In this document: one piece after another, positions 5,933-58,525 of the stretch
How the letters are laid out: each line of letters opens with the position of its first letter
Numbering within the stretch: the first letter of the stretch is position 1
From: Octopus vulgaris
Taxonomy: Eukaryota
Length of the DNA stretch: 64,000 nt
Assembly: GCA_951406725.2 (NCBI GenBank)
Contig: OX597824.1
Coordinates: forward strand, 310,001 to 374,000
Direction of reading: 5' to 3'
Notes under the pieces: model-generated
Database searches by the model: none
Told to the model about the DNA's origin: nothing
Seen by the model: only the letters and a program-made list of their open reading frames with translations
Made by a program: the position numbers and the translations under genes

Positions 5933-5936
5933 GTGT

Positions 5937-6514
5937 GTGCCAAAGAAACAGCTACGGTGCACTGCAGGATAGGGCCACCCCTTGAAAAAGATGATACACT
6001 CACAGGAAATCCAATGAGGATAAGTGAAATACTAAATGAGCAATTCAAAAGTATTTTCACTCCACCCCTAGGGCACTTTCAATTCAGCAATCCAACTGAC
6101 TTCTTTACCACTGCAGATATAAAAACAGAGGCAATGATGATTGATTACATCAATATAAAGGAAGACGATGTAATGAGGGCTATAGATGAAATTAACCCAA
6201 ACTCAGCTAGTCCTAGCAAGACCACTGCAGTTCCTCTTTCAGAGCTTCCTTGCAACTGGCAAACTTCCAAGAAACTGAAGGAAGGTAAAATATGCCCTAT
6301 TCATAAAGGAGGTAGCAGAGCGGAGGCCAAGAATTTCAGACATATCTCTCTGACCTCACACATCAGCAAGGTCATGGAACGAATAGTCAGAAGGAAACTG
6401 ATCACTTTCCTTAAAGAAAATGACTTGCTGCCTGACACCCAACATGGTTTCCGACCAGGAAGAAGCTGCTTAACTCAGCTCCTACAACACTATGACTGGG
6501 TGCTGAAACGACTG
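5937..6514 (+). mobile_element. Internal fragment of LINE family A1 ORF2 (linker and RT start), with a deletion removing GPDG
   Basis: Collinear with 13292-13915; PIHKGG, HISLTSHISK, QHGFRPGRSC motifs. Confidence 0.9.
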
Positions 6515-6578
6515 CCAGGTGGTGCTATTAAGTTAGACATGGCCTGGGCCAATAATGGCCGAAACCTATCAAAGTATC
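6515..6578 (+). mobile_element. 3' terminus of LINE family B with AAAGTATC tail
   Basis: Matches the reverse complement of ~15950-16012. Confidence 0.85.
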
Positions 6579-7246
<668 letters not shown>

Positions 7247-9300
7247 TGATTGATTGATTGATGATTGATTGATTGATTCCAGTTCCAGCCTGTGAGCTGT
7301 GGCCATGCTGGGGCACCGCCATTTGGTGTTGCTACTTGGTTTTACTTCATGGGGCTTTCTAGCAACTGCTATTTGGTGCATGAGAGAGTTCGATGCAGCT
7401 GCCCTCATCTGCCCCTCCTGCCGTGAAGTTGGTTCATCTGGGACACCAGACAGNNNNNNNNNNNNNNNNNNNNNNNNNNNNNNNNNNNNNNNNNNNNNNN
7501 NNNNNNNNNNNNNNNNNNNNNNNNNNNNNNNNNNNNNNNNNNNNNNNNNNNNNGATCAGTTTTTTTCTGATGATTCGTTCCATGACCTTACTTATGTGTG
7601 ACGTCAGGGAGACTGGCCTGTAGTTTTTGGCCTCCGCTCTACTCCCTCCTTTGTGGATAGGGCATATGGTGCCTTCTTTTAGCGCCCTGGGCAGTTTACC
7701 GTTAGCCAAGGAACCACTGAAGAGCTTCTTCAGTGGTCCCGCTAGGGCATGCCTGCATGTTTTTAGGAGGACTGCTGGGAATCCATCTGGTCCAGCAGCT
7801 GAGTTTATTCTCATTTCTTCTATGGCAGATATTACATCCCTCTCTGTTATGTCTATGTGGTCGATGGTTGTTGTTTGGTTTTGGAGTGTTGTGGCATCAA
7901 AGAAAACTTCTGGGTTTGTGATTTGCATGTGCCCCAGAGGGGATGTGAACACACTTTTATACTGTTCCTTTAGTATTTCACTTATCCCTTGGGGGTCCTC
8001 AGTTAGAGAGCCCTTTTTATCAAAGAGTGGGCCAATCTTGCAGTGTACCGAGGTGGTTTCTTTCGCAAATTTAAAGAAGGCTTTAGGGTTTGTTTTAATA
8101 TTCTCTATGGCCCTGGCTTCTCTCTCTGCCCTCTCCTTCTCATAGGAAAGTTTGAGTGCAGTTTCCGTTTCAAAAAGTTTCAGGTGGAGTCCCTCATTGT
8201 TTCTCTGCCGTGCATTCAGTTGCTTCGAGAGCTTAGCTCTTCGCCTCATAAGTATTTTCCTGTCTCTGGGAATAACGTTCCTATGCCCGCTGGCTTTTTT
8301 CTCCGGGACAAACTTATGGCATATGTTCTGTATTGTTGTCATGAAATGTTGGAAATGTGTGTCGGTGTCTTGTGTGGTGATGAAGTCACTCCAGTCATGT
8401 TTTCGGATCTCTTCGTTGATCTTCTTCCAGTTTGCCTTATGGAAGTTTAGACTGGATAGGCCTGTGGTATTTTCTAATGGCTGCGTCTCAACTAAGTCTC
8501 TCATACCATATATCATTACCTCTACTAAGTTGTGATCTGAGAGAATTGTTGGTGTTACCATTATGTTGTGGATGAGCATCGGGTTGCTTGTGAAACAGAG
8601 GTCCAAGACATTCTCACCTCTTGTTGGCCGAAGCACTGCTTGCTCCATGAAAAACTTGCGTGTGAGAGCCAACAAGGACTCTGTCTGTCTCTGTTCAAGT
8701 GATGTCATTCCAGGGAGGAGATGGCCATCTGGCCATTTGACTTTCGGAAGGTTAAAATCTCCCAGCAGTAGAATGGTGTTACCCTGGTCCAGTTTGTCCA
8801 GGACTTCTTCTATTCTTCTGAGGCTATCTTCAAACACTCCTTCATGACTAGGGGTGTCTGGTGGCCGATATGTGACACATATTACTATTTTCGGTTGTTT
8901 CATGTGTACTATCAGTGTGTCACAGACTGAGTTTGAGTGTGTCAACAGTACTATGGGTGTGACATCTTCACGGACGTACAGGGCAACCCCACCATGAGTT
9001 CTTTCCTTCCTGTCTGACCGAAAAACAGTATACTTTGGTATGTGTATTTCTGCATCTGCTATACTGCTTGACAGGTGCGTTTCAGTCAGCGCTATGCATA
9101 TTGCATGGTTGCTTGTGCTTAAGTCCCTAAGGTAAGGAATTTTACTCATATTAGTGGGTTTCACCAGACCTCTGACATTCAGCAGAAGCACTGGTGAGAT
9201 ATTTGGGGTGTCAATAAAGGCTGACGGTGTGGCACCTGGGCTGGTGTCAGCGGTGGCCACCCTGGGTCCCTTGATTGTGGTGGTCTTGAGTGCTGTTGTG
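7247..9300 (-). mobile_element. LINE family A2 (CR1/L2-group APE-RT), 5'-truncated; most of RT falls in the gap; (AATC)n tail
   Basis: APE motifs LLNVRGL, LTETHL, YRPP, GDFN, PTRG..LDL, SDH; GPDG and NYRPVSLTS; the C-terminus and 3'UTR beyond the gap are homologous to 15015-15190. Confidence 0.93.
7454..7553. other. Assembly gap (100 N)
   Basis: N run; comparison with the A1 copy implies about 1.2 kb is missing. Confidence 0.99.
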
Positions 9301-11742: not shown

Positions 11743-12174
11743 TGCCAAAAAGGATGGCATCCATATGCCAAAAAGGATGGAAACAAGCAGCGCACACGGG
11801 TATGTAGGTTCTACCTGAAAGGTGCCTGCCGGCATGGAGAGGAAGGTGCAGGCTGCCGCTTTGCACATCCGGGACCCTGCCACAGAAACCAACCACCGAA
11901 AGGAAATGGGATGGACCACGCATCACCTGCCCCAAAACGGAGGTACGCAGATGTGGTGCGTACCACAAACCACCAACGTGTTGTTGAAAGGGCAGCTGCT
12001 GAGCAGGAATCTTTTTTGTGCATGGCACAAAAGATTGTACAGCAGCTAACCTGGCTCCATCAGGCTCAGGCTCGCAGATGGAAGTGCCCACAGTTCACAA
12101 GACCGCCACTGCAGATGGACCCAGGGTGGACACCGCCGGCAACAGCATACACCTCACCTCGATGCTCCTACTGA
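11743..12174 (+). CDS. LINE ORF1 C-terminal part with CCCH zinc finger (5'-partial)
   Basis: CRFYLKGACRHGEEGAGCRFAH; overlaps the ORF2 start in another frame. Confidence 0.75.
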   Translation, partial: CQKGWHPYAKKDGNKQRTRVCRFYLKGACRHGEEGAGCRFAHPGPCHRNQPPKGNGMDHASPAPKRRYADVVRTTNHQRVVERAAAEQESFLCMAQKIVQQLTWLHQAQARRWKCPQFTRPPLQMDPGWTPPATAYTSPRCSY

Positions 12175-15122
12175 ACATCAGAGGACTACTAACACACAGT
12201 AACAGGACAAAAGTCCCGTTCCTGAGAGACTTTGTCGCATGCAATCAAGCCTTATGCATAGCACTCACAGAAACGCATCTCAAACCGGACATAGCAGATG
12301 CGGAGTTACACATACCACAGTATGTTGTACTACGGACTGACAGGAAAGAAAGGAGTCATGGAGGAGTTGCTATGTACATCCGTGGGGACCTCACACCCCA
12401 GGTCCTTTTGTCATACTCAAACTCGGTGTGTGACACACTAATTGTACACATAAGGCAACTTGATGTAGTTGTGTGTGCTACATATCGCCCTCCAGATGCC
12501 CCAAGTCATATGGGCAAGTTTGAGGACTGCCTTTTAAAAATAGAAGAAGTTCTAATCACATTAGAACAACACATAAGTGTACTTCTCATGGGAGACTTCA
12601 ATCTACCCAATGTCAGATGGCCCGAGGGCCTTTCTCTCCCAGGAATGACAAGATGTGAACGAGGACAGGCGAGGTCCCTCCTGAACCTCATCAACACCCT
12701 GTACATGGAGCAAGTAATACTCCAACCAACCAGAGCAGGTAACACACTGGATCTCTGCTTCACAAATAATATGGATCTCATCCATAATGTGAAAGTGACA
12801 CCGACACTACTCTCGGATCACAACATGGTAGAGCTGACCATGTACGGGCCAAAAGAGAGCACGGACATGCAGCCTACAAGAAACCCTCAGAATCTTTCCA
12901 GCTTGAACTTCAATAAGGCAAACTGGAAACAAATTGAGAAAGAGATCCTCAAACAAAACTGGCCTGAATGTCTCTCCTCGCCGGACATCGACATGATACT
13001 TCAACAATTCATGTCTGTAATGCAAGCCATATGCTACAAATGTGTCCCAGAGAGAAAGGCCACTGTACACAAGAACAAAATCCCCAGAGAGAGGAAAATT
13101 TTAATGAGACGGCGTACAAAAATTTCAAATCGCCTACACAAACAAATTGAAAGCAGTGAAAAGTCCCGCCTGAAAATAAAACTGTTGGAAATTGAAAATT
13201 GTCTGCAACTCTCCCATGAGAAGGAAAGAGCAGACAAAGAAGCCTGGGCTATAGACAACATAAAAACTAACCCCAGAGCTTTCTACAGGTATGCCAAAGA
13301 AACAGCTACGGTGCACTGTAGGATAGGGCCACTCCTTGAAAAGGATGGCACACTCACAGGAAAACCAATGAGGGTAAGTGAAATACTGAATGAACAATTT
13401 AAGAGTGTTTTCACTCCACCCCTTGGGCATTTCCAAATCAGCAATCCAACTGACTTCTTTACCACTGCAGATATAGAATCAGAGGCGGCGACGATAAATT
13501 ACATCGATATAAAGGAAGACGATGTAATAAAGGCTATAGATGAAATGAAAACAGACTCAGCTATTGGCCCCGATGGATTCCCGGCAATCCTCCTAAAAGT
13601 ATGTAAGAGAGTCCTAGCAAGACCACTGCAGTTCCTCTTTCAGAGCTTCCTTGCAGCTGGCAAACTTCCAAGAAAACTGAAGGAAGGTAAAATATGCCCT
13701 ATTCATAAAGGAGGTAGCAGAGCGGAGGCCAAGAACTACAGACCTATCTCTCTGACCTCACACATCAGCAAGGTCATGGAACGAATAGTCAGAAGGAAAC
13801 TAATCACCTTCCTTGAAGAAAATGACTTGCTGCCTGACACCCAACATGGTTTCCGACCAGGAAGAAGCTGCTTAACTCAGCTCCTGCAGCACTATGACTG
13901 GGTGCTGAAACAACTGCTCAACCACTCAAATGTGGAAGTCATATATCTCGACTTCGCAAAGGCCTTCGATAAAGTCGATCATGGAATGATATGTCACAAA
14001 CTGCGTGATCTTGGCATAGTTGGAAAACTAGGAGAATGGCTTCATGACTTTCTGAAGAATAGAAGTCAGGTGGTAGCAGCCAATGGGGCCACTTCCATTA
14101 GCACGCAAATAGTGAGCGGTGTTCCACAGGGCACTGTTTTGGGACCACTACTGTTCATAATGGCCCTCTCAGACATGCCCTCAGCCACGCAGAGAGCCAC
14201 GATCACAAGTTATGCAGATGATACAAAAGTTTCACAGGCAATACAGAACCCTGAAGACACTAAACGCCTGCAATGTGAGCTGGACGAAATATACAAGTGG
14301 GCTGAAAAGAATAGCATGCAGTTCAATGCTGAAAAGTTTCAAGCTTTATACTATCAGCATGCAAAACTGAATGCAATACCCAATGAATACACTGTACCCG
14401 GAGGGATTGCAATCCCAGAGGCACAATCAGTGCGTGACCTGGGTATTCACATGAGTGATGACGCGACCTTTCATGTACATGTTGCTAAACTGACAATGAA
14501 ATGCAGACGGCTGGCTGGATGGATTCTTAGAACCTTTAGAACAAGAGAACAAGAAACCATGATGGTCCTCTGGAAGACACTTGTCCTAAGCCACTTTGAC
14601 TATTGCTCTCAGCTATGGTCACCATCCAGTGTCAAGTTGATCACAGAACTTGAGGCGATCCAACGAAGCTACACGAAGAAGATAGCCTCTGTGCAGCATA
14701 CGAGCTACTGGGAGAGACTCAAGAGATTAAAGCTCTATTCCCTGGAGCGTAGGCGAGAAAGATATGTCATAATATATATTTGGAAGATCCTGGAAGGTCT
14801 TGTCCCAGACTTTGGCATAGAGAGTCACACAAACGCTAGAACCGGACGCCACTGCGTAGTACCAAGGACTCCAAATTTGCCATCAAGATGTAGGACAAGA
14901 TATTGTGATAGCCTGGGCTTCAGAGGCCCACGGCTCTTCAATGTCCTCCCGAAGAACCTGAGGGATCTGCATGGTGTAGATGCGGATGTCTTTAAAGTAG
15001 GACTGGATCTCTTCCTGTCAGGTGTCCCGGATGAACCAACTTCACGGCAGGAGGTGCAGATGAGGGCAGCTGCATCGAACTCTCTCATGCATCAGATGGC
15101 GTTTGCTAAAAAGCATCCGTGA
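12078..15122 (+). CDS. LINE ORF2: APE endonuclease plus reverse transcriptase (start ATG 12078 or 12162)
   Basis: Uninterrupted ~1000 codons; LLNIRGL, LTETHL, GDFN, SDH; YRPISLTS, QHGFR, LDFAKAFD, GVPQGTVLGP, YADD. Confidence 0.97.
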   Translation: MEVPTVHKTATADGPRVDTAGNSIHLTSMLLLNIRGLLTHSNRTKVPFLRDFVACNQALCIALTETHLKPDIADAELHIPQYVVLRTDRKERSHGGVAMYIRGDLTPQVLLSYSNSVCDTLIVHIRQLDVVVCATYRPPDAPSHMGKFEDCLLKIEEVLITLEQHISVLLMGDFNLPNVRWPEGLSLPGMTRCERGQARSLLNLINTLYMEQVILQPTRAGNTLDLCFTNNMDLIHNVKVTPTLLSDHNMVELTMYGPKESTDMQPTRNPQNLSSLNFNKANWKQIEKEILKQNWPECLSSPDIDMILQQFMSVMQAICYKCVPERKATVHKNKIPRERKILMRRRTKISNRLHKQIESSEKSRLKIKLLEIENCLQLSHEKERADKEAWAIDNIKTNPRAFYRYAKETATVHCRIGPLLEKDGTLTGKPMRVSEILNEQFKSVFTPPLGHFQISNPTDFFTTADIESEAATINYIDIKEDDVIKAIDEMKTDSAIGPDGFPAILLKVCKRVLARPLQFLFQSFLAAGKLPRKLKEGKICPIHKGGSRAEAKNYRPISLTSHISKVMERIVRRKLITFLEENDLLPDTQHGFRPGRSCLTQLLQHYDWVLKQLLNHSNVEVIYLDFAKAFDKVDHGMICHKLRDLGIVGKLGEWLHDFLKNRSQVVAANGATSISTQIVSGVPQGTVLGPLLFIMALSDMPSATQRATITSYADDTKVSQAIQNPEDTKRLQCELDEIYKWAEKNSMQFNAEKFQALYYQHAKLNAIPNEYTVPGGIAIPEAQSVRDLGIHMSDDATFHVHVAKLTMKCRRLAGWILRTFRTREQETMMVLWKTLVLSHFDYCSQLWSPSSVKLITELEAIQRSYTKKIASVQHTSYWERLKRLKLYSLERRRERYVIIYIWKILEGLVPDFGIESHTNARTGRHCVVPRTPNLPSRCRTRYCDSLGFRGPRLFNVLPKNLRDLHGVDADVFKVGLDLFLSGVPDEPTSRQEVQMRAAASNSLMHQMAFAKKHP

Positions 15123-18188: not shown

Positions 18189-18190
<2 letters not shown>

Positions 18191-19306
18191 ATACTGTTTT
18201 TCGGTCAGACAGGAAGGAAAGAACTCATGGTGGGGTTGCCCTGTACGTCCGTGAAGATGTCACACCCATAGTACTGTTGACACACTCAAACTCAGTCTGT
18301 GACACACTGATAGTACACATGAAACAACCGAAAATAGTAATATGTGTCACATATCGGCCACCAGACACCCCTAGTCATGAAGGAGTGTTTGAAGATAGCC
18401 TCAGAAGAATAGAAGAAGTCCTGGACAAACTGGACCAGGGTAACACCATTCTACTGCTGGGAGATTTTAACCTTCCGAAAGTCAAATGGCCAGATGGCCA
18501 TCTCCTCCCTGGAATGACATCACTTGAACAGAGACAGACAGAGTCCTTGTTGGCTCTCACACGAATGTTTTTCATGGAACAAGCAGTGCTTCGGCCAACA
18601 AGAGGTGAGAATGTCTTGGACCTCTGTTTCACAAGCAACCCGATGCTCATCCACAACATAATGGTAACACCAACAATTCTCTCAGATCACAACTTAGTAG
18701 AGGTAATGATATATGGTATGAGAGACTTAGTTGAGACGCAGCCATTAGAAAATACCACAGGCCTATCCAGTCTAAACTTCCATAAGGCAAACTGGAAGAA
18801 GATCAACGAAGAGATCCGAAAACATGACTGGAGTGACTTCATCACCACACAAGACACCGACACACATTTCCAACATTTCATGACAACAATACAGAACATA
18901 TGCCATAAGTTTGTCCCGGAGAAAAAAGCCAGCGGGCATAGGAACGTTATTCCCAGAGACAGGAAAATACTTATGAGGCGAAGAGCTAAGCTCTCGAAGC
19001 AACTGAATGCACGGCAGAGAAACAATGAGGGACTCCACCTGAAACTTTTTGAAACGGAAACTGCACTCAAACTTTCCTATGAGAAGGAGAGGGCAGAGAG
19101 AGAAGCCAGGGCCATAGAGAATATTAAAACAAACCCTAAAGCCTTCTTTAAATTTGCGAAAGAAACCACCTCGGTACACTGCAAGATTGGCCCACTCTTT
19201 GATAAAAAGGGCCCTCTAACTGAGGACCCCCAAGGGATAAGTGAAATACTAAAGGAACAGTATAAAAGTGTGTTCACATCCCCTCTGGGGCACATGCAAA
19301 TCACAA
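18189..19306 (+). mobile_element. Internal APE/linker fragment of LINE A2, lacking both ends
   Basis: Near-identical inverted copy of ~7916-9033; two amino-acid differences seen (K/M, S/P). Confidence 0.93.
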
Positions 19307-27380: not shown

Positions 27381-27387
<7 letters not shown>

Positions 27388-27543
27388 CAAATAAGAAAAT
27401 AGAGAAATAAATTTAGAGTTTGTTCATCAACTTTCGGATATTAGAATGTTGGATTGTTTATATATAGCATACATATAATATATGTATGCTATAATTCAAT
27501 ACGAATAAGATAAGAATACAAATTATAAAAATCATAATATTAT

Positions 27544-27584
<41 letters not shown>

Positions 27585-28405
27585 TGATTATTATTTATGT
27601 GGTCATAAGCATAGACGTGTTTATATGTCCCAGTATATGTATATATATATGTATATGACGAATGGTATATTTACTTGGACCTACTGTTTAATTGTGTTTA
27701 TTTATGTATTTTTACGCATGTAAAAGTATATACACTCTGCTTATGTATGTATATGTGTATATGTGTATATATGTACATTTATATATCTATATGGATATTT
27801 GTTCATATTTTTATATATATTAAGTAATACGTGTATCATGTTTCATGTATTAATATTAATATTTTTAAAGTTCCTTATAACCTCTGACAAGACCTATGGT
27901 TATATATATAAGTACCCTGTTTTTAAATGCCTATAACCTCAATATATTGACAACTATAGGCAATAAAAATAACTACTTTTAACCATAGGCTGAAACAGCT
28001 GTAAGAAGTGATTTTAATGATTTCAATAATTTATATTATGATTTTTATAATTTGTATTCTTATCTGATATGTATTGAATTATAAGATATATATATGTATG
28101 TTATTGAGGTTTTCATTTTGTTAAATGAATAAACAATCCAACATTCTAATATCCGAAGGTTGATGAACAAACTCTAAATTTGTTTCTCTATTTTCTTATT
28201 TGTATTATATTCTCTATATTCTTATTTGTATAAATTAACGGTAAAAATATTTCTTTACCTGCACCCGCTTAATACTATAAATGAGTTAATTGCATTGCAA
28301 TTAAAACATTTATGTATTAAGAATCTGAGTACATTACCAACAGTATATTGGATAAATACTATCCCTTAGTGGGTTATACCCATAATCCCTAACTTACTTT
28401 GTGTT
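27381..28405 (+). mobile_element. PLE-type pLTR with inverted 5' duplication, between TA arrays
   Basis: 27381-27545 is inverted relative to 28031-28209; hammerhead-like motif inside. Confidence 0.7.
27882..28005 (+). ncRNA. Hammerhead-like motif with long stem II insert; core mutated (CUGACAA)
   Basis: ccuaugguu...aaccauagg, then GAAA-cagcug-UA. Confidence 0.55.
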
Positions 28406-33553: not shown

Positions 33554-34112
<559 letters not shown>

Positions 34113-34189: not shown

Positions 34190-34985
34190 TTTCCCTTGTT
34201 AACAATTAACACGGCAAAATTGGATAAATAGTTACCAGGGTAGCAAAAAATCACACAAGTAAAATTGTTGTAATTCCTTGATTTTAAAGGTAGAAACTCC
34301 GAGTTTACGTGAAATATTTTGTATAATATATATAAATAAATAAATGGAGTTAAACGCGGGTGTTATTCAAATTCTTTTATTTCCGACACATGTTTCGAAG
34401 ATATCACTGGTATTATTCCAAAGGAATAAAATTGTGTAAAACAATGTAATCTTCTCTTCAGGGAAATGAAGAAATGAAACTTGTCAATAAGACATTTTCA
34501 CAGAATATGGTGGATAGGTATAATAATGAACGGAACGCTATTAAGTTGCTTTTTTTTAAAACCTTACAGGATATAAGGTCAAAGGTAGCCTATAGAAAGA
34601 GGAGGGGTAAAGGAAAGAAAAAAAACAAATAAATGAGAAGTATATAACGATATGTAAATTAAATAAAACCCTATGGTCTTGGAAGAAGATAGTGAATGTG
34701 AAATGTAATAAGAAAATTAATGTTTAAATTATATATTATGATAGGTATCACTTATATTCACTAAAGGTGTGTTTCTGCCAATGTTTACATCGGTATGCAC
34801 GCTCTATAACTGTGTTTACAATGGGGTTTTTTTAGAGAAAAGAATAAAAAATAGTTCAGAATTACAGAGAAGACAGAATTCATTGCCTTTATCATAAGTT
34901 ATCGAAATTGAAAGAATCAACCAATCTAAATTAAATTGTTTATTGTGGTCTTTTAGATACCAAATTAATTTACTAAGCCCTGTAC
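34190..34985 (-). mobile_element. Penelope-like 3' end (GIY-YIG C-terminus plus pLTR)
   Basis: STGLSKLIWYLKD, CLLCNSE and RCKH motifs; hammerhead downstream. Confidence 0.8.
34379..34467 (-). ncRNA. Canonical type I hammerhead ribozyme
   Basis: auuucc-CUGAAGA-gaagau...aucuuc-GAAA-caugug-UC-ggaaau; perfect stems I and II. Confidence 0.88.
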
Positions 34986-35074: not shown

Positions 35075-36430
35075 CTGGACCGTACCCACCCAGACCCTGA
35101 GAACAACAATCAGGTGAAAGGAGTGATTGCATATGCAATATGGGCTAGCATAAGAATCACGTTGAAGAACCACATAGTAAAGTTTAACAAGAAACTATAT
35201 ATGCATGTTCAAGCTGTAGCCATTGGTGTCGGTGTAGCTGGAGATGTGGCCGGCCTTTTCATGACCTGATGGGACAGAAAACTTAAGCAATCCTTAGCAG
35301 AACAGTTCACAATTCTTTTACTTTATAATAGGTATGTAGATGACATTAATATCCTAGTTAAGACCAACTCTAGTAACGGTAAAGTAGAAACTGAGAAGAA
35401 CGTAATGAAGAGCATCCAGCAAGTAGCTAACTCCATCCACCAAAGTATCAAGGCAACTATACATTACCCCACTAGGCACCCCAACAATAGACCCCCCGTC
35501 CTGATACTGAACTTCGGTTGGAGACTGTGAACAACAGACTGCAGCTCCTCAACTCCTATTACATGAAACCCATAGCTTCGAAATGTGTTGTTCACAAGAA
35601 CTCAGCTTTGTCACACAACATGAAAATTAACGTACTGATAGCAAACACAGTTAGGATAATGAACAACGTGTCCCCACTATGCAAACCCTATGAAACGAAG
35701 GAACGTGTACAGAACTTCATGCACCACAAGCAATTCTCTGGATATGGTCAGAAATATAGGGTTCGAGTACACAGGGGTGCTAGAAAGAAGTTAGATAACA
35801 TTATATGTAATGAAACCAGTGGTACCTGCCCTAGATATAGAAGCAAAGACTGGAATGGGATACAAGGAGCTTGTGACAAAGCAAACAGGGTGAAAACGTG
35901 GTATAAAAACGAACAAATATCAAGGAGTGATGTTTATAGAGGCCACAGCCCATAGAGAACTAGCCCGTAGATTTGAGAAAGCTCTGAAGGAGACCAAACT
36001 CAACATTAAGATTGTTGAAAATCCAGGGAACTCCATCAGATCACAACTATGTAGGACATACCCCTTTGAGAATACCATATGCACCAAAGATAACAGCATG
36101 CTATGTAAGATTAGTCCTGGCATTAATTGTAGAACTAGAAATGCATTCTACAGCATAAGATGCATAGAAAGTGCTTGTAAAGACAAAAACATGACATACA
36201 TAGAAGAGACATCTAGGAGCATTGCGGAAAGACTAAATGAACATTTCAGACAATATGACGACAAAAAAATTGTACTTCATACTCTACCAACATGGAGGCA
36301 ACCTGGGTCAACTTGACATCCGCATTTTGCCCAAGCACCCAAAGGACCCAACCCTCAGACAAATATAGGAGTACGTCCTCATAAATGAAACATCCACAGT
36401 ACTAAATAGGAACTATACGTAGAGGGTAAT
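35075..36430 (+). mobile_element. Decayed Penelope-like element (RT plus GIY-YIG, Neptune-like Cys-rich linker)
   Basis: RYVDDI, YYMKP..S......SA, YSIRC...YIEETSRS...RLNEH; several frameshifts. Confidence 0.85.
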
Positions 36431-37605: not shown

Positions 37606-38700
37606 TAGTTCTATTTTTATAGCGTGCTTTCACTTCACTACCGAGCGCAGCTCTGTGTGCCTTGGGTATGTGCTGTGATTTGTTGTGATGCTCTGATGGT
37701 TATTGTATGGAAAGTGTTCTGCGTAGGATGTGTGCAGTGCCTAGTAGTGCAATTTTCTGTATGTTATATGTGTTTGTAAGTCCTGGTGTTTTTGTTATGT
37801 ATTTGTCTGAATATTTTTTTATCATGCCTAATGCACCTACTATGATAGGAATTGTTTCTGTTTTCAGGTTCCACATTCTAGTTACCTCTATTTCCAGGTC
37901 TTTGTATTTTGAGAGTTTCTCCATTTCTTTTAGAGACACGTTGTCATCTGCCGGTATTGATACATCAATTAGAAAGCATTTTTTTCTTCATGATCTCTGA
38001 CAACTATATCTGATCTGTTGGCCTTAATTTCTCTATCTGTGTGTATCGGCATATCCCAGAGTATGGTTGCTTTCTCGTTTTCTGTGACCTTTTCTGGTGT
38101 GTGCCTATACCATCTTTTTTCTGTTGTTATTCCATAATGTTGGCATAGCTTCCAATGTATGTAGGTTCCAACTCTGTCATGTCTGTGAATATATTCCTTC
38201 TTAGCCAGGACTGGGCAGCTAGAGATAATATGATTTATTGTTTCTTGTCCATCTCCACATATTCTGCAGTTACTTGTAATATTTCTTTTCATTACATGTT
38301 TTTGGTAATTTCTGGTGGGGAGGCTTTGGTCTTGTGCTGCAATTAAAAATCCCTCTGTTTCTGCTTTGAGTCCTGAGCTTCTCAACCATTGCTGGGATTT
38401 TTCTTTGTCTATTTCTTTTGCGTTTAGTTTAGTGCAGTATTTACCATGAAGGGGCTTTTCTTGCCATCGTTTTATCATGGCTCGTTGCTGTTCTATTTTT
38501 AGTTTGGATTTCATTTGTTTTATAACTTTTGTTGTTTCTTCATCATCTTCTTCTTCTTCTTTGTGTTTATTAGGTGGTATGATTTCTTGTTTGTATCTGT
38601 CAGCTTCCTTAAATACTGAGAACAGTTTTTTGTTTTGCTCGTGTTTTGCTGCTATCTGGATCAGTTTTCCTTCCTTCTGAAGTAGGTATTTTTGCAGGTA
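37602..38700 (-). mobile_element. Dong/R4-clade non-LTR element, 5'-truncated, in (TAA)n
   Basis: AAQDQ, CCHC knuckle CRICG...ETINHIISSC, RHD, RSDIV...IDVSIP, K..KY..L restriction-like endonuclease; frameshift ~37975. Confidence 0.93.
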
Positions 38701-39025: not shown

Positions 39026-40160
39026 TGTATGTATGTGTACATATATGGATATATGGCTGCTACCAGTAAATGAAGAATTCATGTTGAGAAAAACTGTAGT
39101 AGGCTCAGCATCATGGCTATAGTCTAAAGTCAGTCAAAGAACAGAAGGATATAATAATATAAATGTATGCGAGGGCGTATATTGATGAATACAGTAAATA
39201 CATATGCGTACATACAAACCTTCACACACACACATACGACGGTCTTTCGGGTTCTTTCAACCAAATCTACTCATAAGGCTGTGGTCAGTCTGGTATTATA
39301 GTAGAAGACACGGGTAAAAAAAGAAGGATTTCCTAATGAATGTTTTGGCTTTTGAAACTATAAAATGCTGCACATGCACTCAGTTCTGAGTTCAGCTTCT
39401 TATAGCAGAAACAACTGTAAGCTAATGAAGTTGATCCCATAATTTTTGTTTCCTTGCCAGTCAATAATTATGTTACACCCTGTTCTGGTCTAACTCGAAA
39501 TGTATATTGAGTTCTAAGAACTGGTCAGGTAGTTAGAAGTTGCACCGTCCTAGAGAAAGTAAGCTCGGCAGTTAACACTGTTTTGTTTTAGTTGGAGTTC
39601 GAGTCGGGGTTTTAGGTTGTAAGCGTCCTGGGAAAACTCCCTACAAGATACTGAGTGTTAAAGAACCCTGAATGTCACACCTAAGAGAGACAACTCGCCT
39701 CGAGAATGATCGATATCGATATCTCACAATTACTGTGACTTTTTAATACTATGTACTCGAAACATCACAAAACGAAATGAATCGCTGATCTAGGGACATT
39801 TATGCAAATAACGTGGAGTCTATTTGCTGAGTATAATTCATATCTTTCTTTTATACCCACGTGCAGTGTGTTAAGATCTAGACCGCAGTAAATGCAGTTT
39901 CGATCATGGAGTGAATTTATTCAAATATTAATTATAATAATAAAGGTAAAATCAATAATAATTTTACCAAGTAGCCAGTGCGGAAATAAAAACCTTATAG
40001 GTAAATTTTACAAATTATAACAAGGGATCGGCTTTATGCCTCACCACGCACTGCAAGAAATAGACGCCAAAGTCCTTTTTGCCACCTTAAATTCTCCGAG
40101 AATAACACACTATATTGTAGGCAAGAAAAGGAAAAAGAACGAATCATCAAGGCTGGTTAA

Positions 40161-40218
40161 CTATGTACGCGTTTCAAACTTAAAGTAATTTTACTTACTG
40201 TTCCTCTCAGCAGCATAG
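40161..40218 (-). ncRNA. Hammerhead-like motif, A6C variant
   Basis: cuaug-CUGCUGA-gag-gaac...guuu-GAAA-cgcg-UA-cauag. Confidence 0.6.
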
Positions 40219-40582
40219 AATTCCATATAAGTTCACGATTATCTCAAAATATGCACATGACCAGCGTCATCGCATGTCCAGTATGAATCCACACTCGCAA
40301 AAATATACTGCCGAGTATAATTCATATCTTTCGCTGGTCGCACTGGCTACCTGGCAAAATTATTGATTTTACCATTTATTATTATAATTAATATTTGAAT
40401 AAATTCACCCCATGATCGAAATTGCATTTACTGCGGTCTAGACCTGAACGCACTGCACGTTGGTATAAAAAAGATATGACTCATACTCGGCAGTATATTT
40501 TTGCGAGTGTGGATTCATACTGGACATGCGATGACGCTTGTCGCGTGTATATTTTGAGATACTCGTGAACTTATATGGAATT

Positions 40583-40647
40583 CTATGTTGTTGAGATGAA
40601 CAGTAAGTAAAATTATTTTTTACTTTAAGTTTGAAACGCGTACATAG
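40583..40647 (+). ncRNA. Hammerhead-like motif, paralogue of 40161
   Basis: cuaug-UUGUUGA-gau-gaac...guuu-GAAA-cgcg-UA-cauag. Confidence 0.5.
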
Positions 40648-40865
40648 TTAACCAGCCTTGATGATTCGTTCGTTCTCCTTTGCTTGCCTAAAATATAGTG
40701 TTTTATTCTCGGAGAATTTAAGGTGGTAAAAAGGACTTTAGCGTCTATTTCTTGCGGTGCGTGGTGAGGCATAAAGCCGATGCCTTGTAATAATTATGTA
40801 TATAATTATAAAATATTTTATACATACATACATACATACATACATATTTATATATACATATATAT

Positions 40866-40918
<53 letters not shown>

Positions 40919-40954
40919 TGTGTGTGTGTGTGTGTGTATTAAATAAGATGAGAT

Positions 40955-42014
40955 TTTATATTGTCAAGAGCCCAGGCTTCTTAGTCTGTTCTTTCTTTTT
41001 GTTGCAGATTTTTTTCAATCTCCAGCATTTGTATTTTCAGGCTGGATTTTTCACAGCTTTCAATTTGTTTCTTTAGGTGATCTGAAATTTTTGTACACCG
41101 TCTCATAAGAATTTTTCTCTCCCTGAGGATTGTGATTTTGTGTACAGTGGCCTTTCTCTCCGGGACACATTTGTAGCATATGGCTTGCATTACAAACATG
41201 AATTGTTGAAGTTTAATGTCGATACCCGGTGAGGAGAGACATTTAGGCCAGTTTTGTTTGAGGATCTCTTTCTCAATTTGTTTCAGTTTTCTTTATGGAA
41301 GTTCAAACTGGAAAGATTTTGGGAGTTTCTTGTAGGGTGCATGTCCTAGGTTTCCTTTGGTCAGTACATGGTCAGCTCTACTATGTTGTGATCCGAGAGT
41401 AACGTTGGTGTCACTTTCACATTATGGATGAGATCCATATTGTTTTTGAAGCTGAGATCCAGTGTATTACCTGCCCTGGTTGGTTAGAGTACTATTTGTT
41501 CCATGTACAAAGTGTTGATGAGGTTCAGAGGGACTTCAGCTGTCCTTGTTCGCAAAGATTCCTGGAAGGAAAAGGCCTTCAGGCCATCCGACATTGGGTA
41601 GATTGAAGTCTCCCATAAGAAGTACACTTATGTGCTGTTCTAATGTAACTAGGACTTCTAGTTTTGTAAGGCCGTCTTCGAACTTGTCTGCATGATTCAG
41701 AGCATCTGAAAGATGATATGTAGTACATATAACTACATCTTATATGTACAATTAGTGTGTCACATACTGAATTTCAGTGTGACAAAAGGACCTGGGGTGT
41801 GAGGTCTTCGCGGATGTACGTAGCAATTCCACCGTGACTCCTTTCTTTTCTGTCGGTCCGTATTACAATATACTGCGGTATCGGCATGTGTATTTTGGCA
41901 TTTGCTATATCTGGTCTCAGGTGAGTTTCCGTAAGTGCTAAGCACAAGGCTTGAGTGCATGCAACAGGGTCTCTCAAGAAAGGGATTTTTGTCCTGTTAC
42001 TGGGTGTTAACAGG
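40955..42014 (-). mobile_element. Decayed LINE A1 APE fragment
   Basis: [33 protein letters not shown]. Confidence 0.9.
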
Positions 42015-45590: not shown

Positions 45591-45767
45591 GATAAGAAAG
45601 TTTGTTTGGTAAAGCACGTGGGTGAATATATAAGAAAATAGTAAAGTGTGAAAAAACGACAGAAGGCTTAAATGTTAAAAAATATATATATTTGTGTCAA
45701 AATGTCTGGAGAATATTGGAAAAATTTTTTTTCCTTTCCTTAAAATGACATAATTTTAAAATTTTTA

Positions 45768-45807
45768 AAGAAATTACCGGTTTCGCGTGTAGCTTTTCAA
45801 ATTTCTT
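45768..45807 (-). ncRNA. Minimal type I hammerhead, U3-A8 core variant
   Basis: aagaaau-UUGAAAA-gc(uacac)gc-GAAA-ccgg-UA-auuucuu; 7-bp stem I. Confidence 0.8.
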
Positions 45808-45943
45808 GTGACGTTATGTTTATATTGCATGGAATTATCGTTGTTTTTATTTCCAGGAGATTTCTAAATAAGGGGAGGTAGTGAGTGATTTTTTCCGGTG
45901 TAGGGGAGATAATCGCTTAAAAAAATTTTTTCCCATTTCCTTG

Positions 45944-46890
45944 TTAATTTCTCTGTGTCAGTATGTTCGGATGGTTGAGTCTGGGTTTGTACTTTTCAAT
46001 GAAGAATGTTTCCTTGTTCAGTCTCATTTGTGTTGATGATCCGAAAGCACATTGGTAAAATGGGAAGATTAAAAATTGTGGCAGTAGTTGCTTTGCGCAT
46101 TTCTCAATGTGCTCACTAAAAGGTATCATTCTATATTCTGGGAATGCAATCTGTTGTCGATGTAGTGTGCATCTGCGCCTGAGTGATAGTCCCGTGGAAC
46201 CCACGTAGTCTTGGTGGCAGCCCGAGCATTTAATAACATAAATTATGTTTTCAGAGGCACAAGTAAAGTTAGATTTGATCTTAAATTTCTGTCCTTCTTT
46301 AAAGAAGAATTCTGATCCTTCCAATAGGTTAGGACATGTTGCACAGTTCGATCTACCACATTTTTTTACTTTTGCATCCGTAATTTTAGAAGACAATTTT
46401 GCCTTTGTGAGAATCTTTTTAAGTGATTTAGGCTGTTTGTAGCTTTTAATGATTTGGTGTATGTTTAGAATTTCCTTTAATTTTGGGTTTTTATGAAGTA
46501 TTGGTAAATTCTGGGTGATGATGGTGAAGGCTTCTTTGTTTCTGGGGTTGTATGTAGATATGTAAGGTAGTATTTTCGGGGAAGGTGTGTTGTTGTGTTG
46601 AACTTTTCTTAAAGTTTCTATGTTGATTTCTGTTGCACGTCTGATCCCATCCTCTATGAGTTGAGCTGGGTAATGTCTGTCAATTAGGGTGTTTTTGAGT
46701 TCTTGCAGTCTAAAGTTCCTGGTATTTTGTTCTGACAATAGTGTGCATATCCTTCTTGCAAGGTTGAAGGGGATGTTTGTTTTAGTGTGTCTTGGGTGGC
46801 ATGAATTAAAAAGAAGGTATTGTTTGGCGTCTGTGGCTTTGTAAAAAATGTCTGTTTCTATTTTAAGGTTAATTTTTTTAATTAGTATAT
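45944..46890 (-). CDS. PLE ORF C-terminal part: RT thumb plus GIY-YIG endonuclease (5'-partial)
   Basis: TDIFYKATD..QYLLFNSCHP, C...CATC, NIIYVIKCSGCHQDYVGSTG...RR...H, KETFFI...P.LN. Confidence 0.92.
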
Positions 46891-47008
46891 TCATGTTTGA
46901 CAATACATTTTACCGTCATTTTTCCAATATTCTCCAGACATTTTGACACAAATATATATATTTTTTAACATTTAAGCCTTCTGTCGTTTTTTCACACTTT
47001 ACTATTTT

Positions 47009-47741
<733 letters not shown>

Positions 47742-47966
47742 GGTTTTCCAATGAAAACCGATTATAGCAGCGACACCATCTAAGAATATCTGAAGAAGGA
47801 ATTGTATTCCGAAATATCATCGGACTATGGATAACTAAATTACAACAGGTATATAGTCCATTTTTAAAAATATTATAGTGCATTGTTGTACCATTCATGT
47901 ATGTATACTCGTTAGCCGATATGGAAGGGAATATAGCGACTGCTTTCGCCATATTCCCTTCCATAT

Positions 47967-48060
47967 CGGCTAACTCTGATGAGCGTAAAGTTATATAATC
48001 GGTTTGTTACTTAACACTCCATTGTATTCTGTACGCGAAACCGATTGGTAAGTCCAGCCG
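47967..48060 (+). ncRNA. Canonical type I hammerhead ribozyme
   Basis: cggcu-a-acu-CUGAUGA-gcgua...uacgc-GAAA-cc(gauu)gg-UA-agu-cc-agccg. Confidence 0.85.
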
Positions 48061-48554
48061 TGATGGATATTTAATACTATACATTTCGGATAATATATGT
48101 ATATACATAAATATATATAAATACATCGTGTCTTGTCGACGGAAGATTGAAAGATCGTTGTTGTATCTGGATTTAAAGTTTTCTATTGGCAAGAAATCTT
48201 GAAATAAACTGAATAATGACTTATATATATAATGACATACATATATATATAATGAAAACCACAAACACCCTTGTGAAATGCAACTACCCAGGATTTTCTG
48301 TCCAAAATATTAACTTATTTCGCTATTTAACAAGCTGGTAAAAACAATATGACGGTCTAGTAACTTCGATCGATGCAATTGACATTTGAATAAGCACGTG
48401 CATTTAAAAAAAAGAACAGAGAGAAACACAAGACAGATAATTAATACCACAGTAAATATAACCTGTGCTTTACGAATATCAAACTTACTTAAACCAACAC
48501 TGGAATGGTTTGCGATGCGTCCGGTAGTTTATTCTTAATTTCTGTTAAAATATA

Positions 48555-56512: not shown

Positions 56513-57015
56513 TAGCTAGGCATCTGGGGCCGTATTGTACGTAGTATGACTGCAAGTAGGAGCGGGAATGTATTTAAGCTACATTTTCACTTGACAGGTA
56601 ATAAGATCACGAACACTTCACAAGTTAGTCTAAGTTTCCAAGTTTGAATGTCACATGCTGGCCCGTGGTAACTGGCATTCAGTGAAGATAATATATCGGT
56701 GCGAGTACGTGCATGCCCACGTGTGCCTAACGGAATATACGTCTGAAACGGAATATACGTCTGAAAGTGCTTATAGAAATATATCTGCGCATAGGTGAGT
56801 ACGCGTATGGGTGTGTATTTAGGCAAAAACATATATATTCAGATGAGTGTTTGGAAGTCACTTGACCCTGTTATCTCCCCTACTATCCCTCTAGCGTCTA
56901 ACGTCTGACCTCTGGCCTCTGACTTCTGCCTGAAGTCAGAACGCCATGATAGACCGTTAGCTCCTACACGCATTTTTTCTCTCTTTGTTTCTCTCCTTGT
57001 TTCTTTTCTGTGTAT

Positions 57016-57051
57016 CTTTCTGTAGAGGAGCGTAGGCTCGAAACGTAAAAG
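57016..57051 (+). ncRNA. Minimal hammerhead-like motif, A6U plus one extra nucleotide
   Basis: cuuu-CUGUAGA-g-gagc(guag)gcuc-GAAA-cg-UA-aaag. Confidence 0.6.
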
Positions 57052-57178
57052 GCTTGTTCTATTTCTATTCCTGAGCGCCATACTAATACATTTGTTTGTT
57101 TGTACTCCTCCTGCCTTCGTCTTTTGTTTATTTTCGTAAACCTCCCGTTATATATAAATACATATATATATATACATG

Positions 57179-57241
<63 letters not shown>

Positions 57242-57323
57242 GATAATTCACAAAAAAAGACGAAGGCAGGTTGTGTAGACAACAAACAGATGTATTAGTA
57301 TAATGCTCGGGAAGTGAAAAAGT

Positions 57324-57359
57324 CTTTAACGTTTCGAGTCTACGCTCTTCCACAGAAAG
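57324..57359 (-). ncRNA. Minimal hammerhead-like motif, A6U plus one extra nucleotide
   Basis: cuuu-CUGUGGA-a-gagc(guag)acuc-GAAA-cg-UU-aaag. Confidence 0.55.
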
Positions 57360-57404
57360 GAACACAGAAAGAAACAAGGAGAGAAAATAAAGAATGTGTA
57401 GCGG

Positions 57405-58185: not shown

Positions 58186-58260
<75 letters not shown>

Positions 58261-58267
<7 letters not shown>

Positions 58268-58525
58268 GAAATGAAGAAAATGCTGACAACATAATTTAAG
58301 TAATTTAAGTAATTTAATTAGGTGAAAGTTCTTTTTACCGGTTGCGCATTTGTTATGCTTATCAAAAGATAGATTTTTCCTCTTATCTGTCTTTTGATAA
58401 GCATAACAAATGCGCAACCGGTAAAAAGAACTTTTACCTAATTAAATTACTTAAATTACTTTTGTCAGCATTTTCTTCATTTCCTTTTTTATCTATCACA
58501 ACTCATGTTCCACATCTCCTTTTTT
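58261..58525. mobile_element. Foldback PLE-type terminus with ~110-bp arms, between TA arrays
   Basis: 58261-58372 is near-perfectly inverted relative to 58384-58492. Confidence 0.8.
58392..58428 (+). ncRNA. Hammerhead-like motif, U3-A8 with A13C; mirror copy at 58331-58368 (-)
   Basis: UUGAUAA-gcau(aacaa)augc-GCAA-ccgg-UA. Confidence 0.55.

Follow-up and report, generated by a model that had tools for sequence, protein, structure and literature searches.

An inverted pair of permuted 484-nt units with hammerhead-like motifs in Octopus vulgaris, consistent with a non-autonomous Penelope-type insertion

The 64,000-nt stretch of Octopus vulgaris DNA analysed here (hereafter the window) contains, at positions 39825-40800, an inverted pair of copies of a 484-nt non-coding unit, and each copy carries one hammerhead-like motif. 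We read this element, with a probability of roughly 0.55, as an old and dead insertion of a non-coding Penelope-type unit, which would have been moved in trans by the protein of an autonomous Penelope-like element (PLE). The family may not yet have been reported, and its kind is already in the literature. A preliminary description of the locus had suggested an undescribed kind of circRNA-forming retroelement. This suggestion was given up, because such a kind has already been proposed or shown (PMC4209133, PMC7229834 and a 2026 preprint, bioRxiv 10.64898/2026.07.22.740005). The placement of the element near the non-LTR retrozymes and tandem pLTRs was right.

The self-comparison proposed in the preliminary description was carried out as a self-BLAST of the window, and it confirmed both the inverted blocks and a 24-nt direct repeat. 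The block at 40470-40800 is inverted with respect to 40331-40009 (91.5%, E 3e-134), and the block at 40339-40492 with respect to 39982-39825 (89.3%, E 7e-54). The direct repeat, which was also found by a repeat search, lies on the minus strand with its 5' copy at 40309-40332 and its 3' terminal copy at 39825-39848; the two copies are identical at 23 of 24 positions, the single mismatch being a transition at a CpG. Their spacing of 484 nt gives the period of the unit. The repeat structure described earlier thus stood, with a 19-mer starting exactly at 39829 and 40313 as had been claimed, and the period of 484 nt replaces the earlier unit size of about 490 bp.

Alignments showed that the minus copy (39825-40332, minus strand) is 508 nt long, or one period plus 24 nt. 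In its 5' to 3' direction it reads segment B (40331-40009), a 26-nt spacer (40008-39983), segment A (39982-39849) and a 24-nt restart of B (39848-39825). The plus copy (40339-40800, plus strand) is 462 nt long, starts at a different phase and reads A and then B without the spacer. This is the order given in the preliminary description for both copies. The spacer, which is found in the minus copy only and is a candidate PLE tail, stretches to 38 nt if the end of B is placed at the last clean block shared by the two copies. Segment A begins with the same base in both copies. The substitution distance between the copies is 6.2% in A and 6.2% in B, and this equal divergence fits one common origin. 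The copies face each other head to head across the junction 40332/40339, where a 6-nt filler (40333-40338) looks as if the start of A had been copied with a slip.

The two outer ends of the element lie in different surroundings. On the right, the 3' end of the plus copy enters AT-rich DNA with (ATAC)n/(GT)n microsatellites (40801-40939), which is the likely insertion target. The left side is ordinary sequence. The 500 bp of the left flank (39322-39824) matched no other part of the window, and five of their frames gave no Pfam match; an octamer-like ATGCAAAT motif is found there, about 25 nt away from where the element begins on the left. No target-site duplication longer than 5 nt was found in the 50-nt flanks, in which the best common words are 5 nt long, consist of A and T only and lie away from the ends. 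Self-BLAST showed no further copy of the 484-nt unit elsewhere in the window.

A descriptor search found a single type I hammerhead-like motif in each copy, as had been noted before, although the cores of both are altered. The motif of the minus copy (40161-40218, minus strand; predicted cut 40166/40165) has a 5-bp stem I, a weak 4-bp base of stem II, GAAA, a palindromic CGCG and UA, and its core is CUGCUGA (A6C). The motif of the plus copy (40583-40647, plus strand; predicted cut 40642/40643) has the core UUGUUGA (C3U and A6U) and a 7-nt insertion in the loop of stem II; it is probably inactive. Both cores depart from CUGANGA, and the G10.1-C11.1 pair is absent. A6C is a naturally occurring hammerhead variant of low activity (PMC3088659, PMC7151607). 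U at core position 6 is likewise found in a separate hammerhead-like pair at 57 kb. With our own descriptor, the strict motif appeared in none of 600 Markov 507-mers and in none of 20 block-shuffled windows. The Rfam hammerhead gave no match at the gathering score in the whole window and was absent from the 23 Rfam matches up to E 10 in 39300-41000. The Rfam matches near the element were below gathering scores and were rejected as microsatellite or inverted-repeat artefacts. The locus shows no same-strand hammerhead tandem, each strand having a single motif. With one ribozyme on each strand and neither core unaltered, the locus itself would be unable to release a monomer or a circle.

The element has no long ORF, in agreement with the preliminary description. 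Its longest stop-to-stop frame is 69 aa, and the element is for this reason not an autonomous PLE. Of 49 listed frames, 16 were scanned against Pfam, with no match for 15 and a match at E 0.14 for one. A profile built from 64 PLE proteins found no PLE protein remnant in 39300-40820 (best domain E 0.67), and the same profile did recover the PLEs at 35-36 kb and 46 kb; a remnant of a PLE ORF in the element was ruled out on this basis. No relatives were found for a 42-aa frame spanning the A/spacer junction, or for the 69-aa frame among 1.84 billion representatives. Self-BLAST showed no likeness to the PLEs or pLTRs in the window, and identity with the pLTRs of the neighbouring PLEs was thereby ruled out. 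The 24-nt motif had no match in a set of genome contigs, and phage and plasmid collections gave no match; these sets are prokaryotic and uninformative on animal copies. A 15-nt motif of the element had no match in literature full text. Short motifs had no exact match in the available parts of the supplements of PMC8557442 and PMC13282606, where line breaks can hide matches. No description of the family was found in the retrozyme, PLE and cephalopod literature, a search that did not extend to the O. vulgaris repeat library.

The layout of the pair agrees with a pattern published for PLE insertions, namely a partial tandem with an adjoining inverted 5'-truncated copy and a tail of 30-40 bp at one end (PMC8557442). 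These insertions also show a bias towards microsatellites (PMC8557442). The PLE-type hammerhead is of type I with a short palindromic stem III (PMC4209133, PMC6765202), and an intron at the hammerhead has been described for Penelope (PMC4209133, PMC2377424). Two internal sites downstream of the hammerhead serve as starting points for a PLE RT, and in vitro the PLE protein cleaves and extends both strands of AT-rich DNA (PMC11167929).

A young PLE at 45591-47017, about 5 kb away, was used as an internal control. It contains a 5'-truncated ORF for the end of the RT and GIY-YIG (46909-45944, minus strand), whose relatives have PF26215 in all 64 matches listed and in most of them also the RT PF00078. 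Its hammerhead, at 45800 on the minus strand, has the published U3-A8 core. As in the element described here, an inverted copy is present: 99 of 99 bp are identical, head to head across about 9 nt. About 35 nt of extra sequence, the tail, is found at one end only, and (TA)n lies on both sides. This tail is terminal, whereas the candidate tail of the element, the spacer of 26-38 nt, is internal. The ends of the control lie 149 and 184 nt past the cut; in the element, the distances from the cut are 146-158 nt for the end of B and 183 nt for that of the spacer. For three further hammerhead-like ends in the window the distance from the cut is 88, 101 and 202 nt, and for a fourth, at 34.4 kb, it is 478 nt with a microsatellite inside. 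Since these ends vary widely, the match of 183 to 184 nt depends on a single control. The control may also have an intron beginning at its hammerhead cut site.

On this background we propose the following course of events for the insertion of the non-coding Penelope-type unit. The unit would be of pLTR size and comprise a promoter-like region, a hammerhead, a predicted intron and a tail, in the natural order A-B-(spacer). The RT/GIY-YIG protein of a putative autonomous partner would cut AT-rich DNA, and cDNA would be primed from both target ends. At the right end, synthesis would start at the usual tail-less site about 150 nt past the hammerhead and copy B and then A to give the plus copy. At the left end, a partial tandem would be copied through B and the spacer and then through A and 24 nt more to give the minus copy. 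This partial tandem could stem from a linear head-to-tail transcript, from a jump off the 5' end of the RNA onto a tailed 3' start site, or from a downstream unit that was shortened by a later deletion. The two cDNAs would finally be joined head to head via a short filler. Twin priming and template jumping are well-known concepts.

In this way, the permutation and the 24-nt repeat would represent two truncation states of a head-to-tail unit, and therefore a covalent circle is not required. The preliminary description had expected a circular or multimeric template. It is correct that both copies are stretches of a 484-nt head-to-tail repeat or circle; the circle itself is not needed, because a partial tandem with an inverted 5'-truncated copy and a tail is a described PLE pattern (PMC8557442), because a solo unit with short direct repeats has been described for Penelope (PMC2377424), and because hammerhead pairs on opposite strands, 100-700 bp apart, were already reported in 2014 (PMC4209133).

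Several facts count against a Penelope-type insertion by linear copying. No sequence link was found between the element and any autonomous PLE in the window. The left outward end of the minus copy lies 341 nt past the predicted ribozyme cut, which is not a 3' site of PLE type. Unless a self-jump is assumed, it would be a coincidence that the minus copy comes within 24 nt of one period; by a length argument we estimate the chance at roughly 5-10%. The hammerhead is non-canonical and is not recognised by Rfam, and the two copies form the whole sample.

The promoter-like region and the intron are predictions. TATA, Inr and splice signals follow well-known consensus motifs. In the plus copy, a TATA-like box (40464-40471) lies about 30 nt upstream of an Inr-like GCAGT (40490-40494, plus strand). 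Such a pair occurred in 30 of 2000 shuffles, and a TATA-like box alone in 540 of 2000. The spacing implies a start at 40490-40494 rather than at the first base of A, a further point against the Penelope-type insertion proposed above. The minus copy has its TATA-like box at 39855-39848, and the 24-nt repeat sits between the TATA-like box and the Inr-like site; its 3' terminal copy would end at the predicted +1. A spliceosomal intron of 89 nt is predicted across the cut site of the minus copy (40110-40198, minus strand), with a GTAAGT donor in stem II, a pyrimidine tract and a UAG acceptor, and one of 96 nt with the same signals in the plus copy (40603-40698, plus strand). Donor, pyrimidine tract and AG are present in both copies; such a set of signals occurred in 2 of 2000 shuffles, with thresholds picked after the sequence had been viewed.

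Another explanation, which we consider unlikely, is that the template was a covalent circular RNA. A 484-nt circle would be supplied by a dimeric-hammerhead master tandem elsewhere, and the PLE RT would enter it at two phases from the two target ends, run for about one round and halt at its own cDNA, leaving copies of +24 and -22 nt. It would then need no coincidence that both copies, at different phases, come within 26 nt of one period. The mechanism has already been proposed (PMC4209133, PMC7229834), for PLEs as more-than-unit reverse transcription of a circle made by the hammerhead (PMC4209133), and retrozyme circles have been shown in coral, mussel and axolotl (PMC7229834). The A6C core, as a natural and weakly active variant, would also be compatible with a circle. 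On the other hand, a circular template requires that entry points are free, that a master ribozyme is active and that a tandem exists, and no same-strand hammerhead tandem is seen at the locus. The 3' end of the plus copy falls where the fixed ends of PLEs fall, and the one PLE RT studied uses fixed start sites; for that PLE, the available text reports that RNA-seq reads ending at the hammerhead cut were not found (PMC11167929). Eight of nine predicted Xenopus retrozyme dimers were uncleaved in vitro (bioRxiv 10.64898/2026.07.22.740005).

The predicted folding of the unit bears on the circle in both directions. The minus unit folds into a nested rod with 48 confident long-range pairs, a number reached by none of 60 shuffles and by one of 48 background strands, and the outer helix of the rod begins at the first base of A. 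Such a rod would suit a circular RNA. The linear form (z -3.5 to -4.1), however, is as stable as the circular form (z -3.4), and therefore the fold gives no sign of circle closure. A z of -3.4 or lower was also reached by 8 of 44 background strands (from 22 of 24 candidate windows), and folding energy as proof of a circle was rejected. Moreover, the plus copy is without the fold (z -1.0; 9 long-range pairs). Placed on the minus fold, the 33 differences between the copies break pairs in 15 cases, keep pairs in 10 and are unpaired in 8, with no clean compensatory change. The rod and the intron are not independent signals, because the purine run that follows the TATA-like box is a pairing partner of the predicted pyrimidine tract. 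When alleles were swapped, those of the minus copy stabilised the plus copy in 14 of 30 events and the reverse held in 7 of 30, in a test that is unable to tell one insertion from two; with 28 random changes, the plus copy attained the minus energy in 1 of 40. This modelling hints that the minus copy is closer to a structured ancestor. It was also noted that a transcript through 39825-40800 would form a long dsRNA (MFE -567 kcal/mol, 81% paired), on which A-to-I editing or small-RNA processing could act.

A further point in favour of the circle is an anti-core strand at the end of the 24-nt repeat (40304-40315, minus strand). Its 12 nt are complementary to the stem I/core strand at 40217-40206 and are predicted to block the ribozyme. 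The helix has a probability of 0.91 and -18.0 kcal/mol, a value found in none of 200 shuffles, and the probability of stem I drops from 0.99 to 0.28. It is worth noting that these observations could be extended to a cephalopod family of 484-nt circular RNAs, which a PLE RT would enter at whatever phase, starting from the two ends of a double-strand cut, and copy into DNA, but we regard such a family as doubtful. It is a similarly tentative idea that each member would combine a Pol II promoter of its own with an A6C hammerhead, an intron spanning the cleavage site and an anti-core strand like that of viroids. Speculative to the same degree is the notion that the anti-core strand, which would overlap the start site, is short in the primary transcript and becomes complete and blocking in the circle.

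It is also conceivable, with a low probability, that the minus copy is a complete solo unit flanked by a 24-nt tail repeat, and that the plus copy is a partial tandem with a truncated 5' end and with its 3' part lost to the microsatellite. In the virilis group, solo ORFs lie between two 34-bp direct repeats, and the 34-bp repeat of Penelope scores as a basal promoter element (PMC2377424). The position of the 24-nt repeat between the TATA-like box and the Inr-like site, ending at the predicted +1, would be comparable, and a complete unit would account for the better fold kept by the minus copy in the allele swap. The repeat is, however, shorter than a tail of 30-40 bp, and the end 341 nt past the cut does not suit a tail. 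The repeat also lies upstream of the hammerhead and the intron, whereas the 34-bp repeat of Penelope lies at the start of the ORF. Under this explanation the near-unit length of the plus copy turns into the coincidence.

We attach just as little probability to a one-off DNA event, such as template switching in replication, unequal exchange or a deletion inside a partial tandem, that would have permuted the pLTR ends of an autonomous PLE, so that no independent non-autonomous family would exist. Most PLE insertions are 5'-truncated ends (PMC8557442, bioRxiv 10.64898/2026.07.22.740005), and the lack of a further copy in the window is as expected from a single event. Switches could be steered by internal 7-nt repeats, which lie at the start of A and have their complement in B. 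Against this, the spacer forms a direct link between a 3' end and the start of A, and neither side of it has ORF sequence. The spacer has no counterpart after the plus copy either: a decayed spacer there was rejected, because 1139 of 2000 shuffles scored as well. A local event would therefore need at least three switches and the loss of the spacer.

Finally, a non-PLE repeat (SINE, solo LTR or MITE) that was duplicated in inverted orientation and carries a chance hammerhead-like motif is highly improbable: the lack of an Rfam hammerhead, the altered cores and a B-box-like 9-mer in A speak for it, but the strict motif is absent from both null sets, the head-to-head geometry is shared with the nearby coding PLE, no target-site duplication beyond 5 nt marks the flanks, and a Pol III SINE head was ruled out by a tRNA search without a tRNA-like head and by a T4 run at nt 29 of A that would stop Pol III.

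The element was compared with known systems. With the PLE insertions that have pLTRs (Penelope/Poseidon, Neptune, Hydra) it shares the partial tandem, the head-to-head inverted 5'-truncated copy, the type I hammerhead with a palindromic stem III, a likely AT-rich/microsatellite target on the right, a candidate tail on one copy only and a predicted intron at the ribozyme. Unlike the PLEs as described in the available parts of PMC8557442, PMC2377424, PMC4209133 and PMC11167929, it has no RT/GIY-YIG ORF or remnant; at its head-to-tail junction the promoter-like segment follows immediately on the 3' end, and no partner was found in the window. Penelope is described as TATA-less, whereas the element has a TATA-like box. 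The non-autonomous Chlamys PLEs such as MRC1 (PMC8557442) are likewise non-coding PLE derivatives with pLTRs and head-to-tail insertions. Their 3' ends are similar to those of their autonomous partners, and hammerheads are, in the available text, mostly lacking, whereas the element has no similarity to a partner in the window. As judged from sequence, the hammerhead type, the partial tandem and the adjoining inverted copy are those of a non-autonomous PLE derivative, and the 2026 preprint argues that animal retrozymes are such derivatives (bioRxiv 10.64898/2026.07.22.740005).

Like the metazoan non-LTR retrozymes, the element is non-coding, AT-rich (35% GC) and built on a unit of a few hundred bases; each period has one type I hammerhead, the sequence runs on head to tail, and the RNA is predicted to be self-paired. 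Its 484 nt exceed the 150-450 bp of the first-described retrozymes and lie within the 51-972 bp of the preprint (PMC7229834; bioRxiv 10.64898/2026.07.22.740005). A target-site duplication of more than 4 bp is optional in these retrozymes, and none above 5 nt accompanies the element. In contrast to them, the element has only 1.05 and 0.95 periods in opposite orientation and no hammerheads in consecutive units, and its core and stem II are non-canonical. Because it lacks tandem hammerheads and has a non-canonical core, it cannot be filed as an active non-LTR retrozyme. It also differs from most animal retrozymes in that its core is predicted to be blocked. Predicted blocking by a complementary strand is a likeness to plant LTR retrozymes and hammerhead viroids, although plant retrozymes have type III hammerheads, LTRs with PBS/PPT and 4-bp duplications, none of which is found in the element. 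A core-blocking strand has been described for viroids, plant retrozymes and, exceptionally, some mussel retrozymes (PMC7229834). Hammerhead reviews were consulted for the PLE and retrozyme context (PMC6765202, PMC7761336).

The O. vulgaris assembly has 190 families of PLEs, which together make up 6.83% of it (PMC13282606), and five hammerhead-like ends besides the element were found in the window, which is AT-rich overall and full of microsatellites. The stretches 34372-34467 (minus strand), 33676-34002 and 35200-36316 hold an intact-core hammerhead with a long stem II at 34461 on the minus strand, an inverted pair of 96 bp close to it and, on the plus strand, degraded fragments of PLE RT/GIY-YIG. 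A non-coding PLE-like end at 27385-28205 has a 74-bp inverted copy head to head and (TA)n on its left; its hammerhead-like motif (about 27880-28010) has a very long stem II, was seen by eye and failed the descriptor. At 56988-57386, two related minimal-hammerhead repeats, 14% diverged and both with U at position 6, face each other across (TA)n. Past a long (TA)n, a further GAAA-CCGG-TA motif and palindromic stretches are located near 47740-48070. The stretches 45626-45724, 46919-47017 and 47720-48100 fold at z -4 to -5. A near-perfect 240-bp palindrome beside (TA)n (58255-58496) is possibly a fold-back or another inverted PLE end.

Other retroelements were also observed in the window. A LINE at 12003-15122 has an intact 1039-aa endonuclease/RT frame, with its best named relative in Argonauta hians (63%) and related fragments at 5935-6515, 7434-9190, 18189-19306 and 40951-42009. 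The segments 7916-9033 and 18189-19306 are inverted and 99.6% identical, which may be due to a recent duplication or an assembly artefact. A 243-aa frame at 37969-38700 (minus strand) has a zf-RVT match at E 3e-06; we take it to be probably the 3' end of a non-LTR retrotransposon with a restriction-like endonuclease.

The element adds one probably unlisted non-coding family of the PLE/retrozyme type to a genome in which PLE ends abound. How an RNA of this kind could switch between cleavage, splicing and a stable form is suggested by its anti-core helix and by an intron predicted to span the cut. The spread of the start and end points of the family around the 484-nt unit bears on whether PLE enzymes copy circular RNA or linear tandems. 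The circular-template model has been proposed since 2014, and the available parts of the PLE and retrozyme literature examined hold no demonstration of it. If the template was indeed a circle entered at any phase, phase-shifted copies of unit length would be direct genomic evidence for retrotransposition of PLEs and retrozymes from a circular template.
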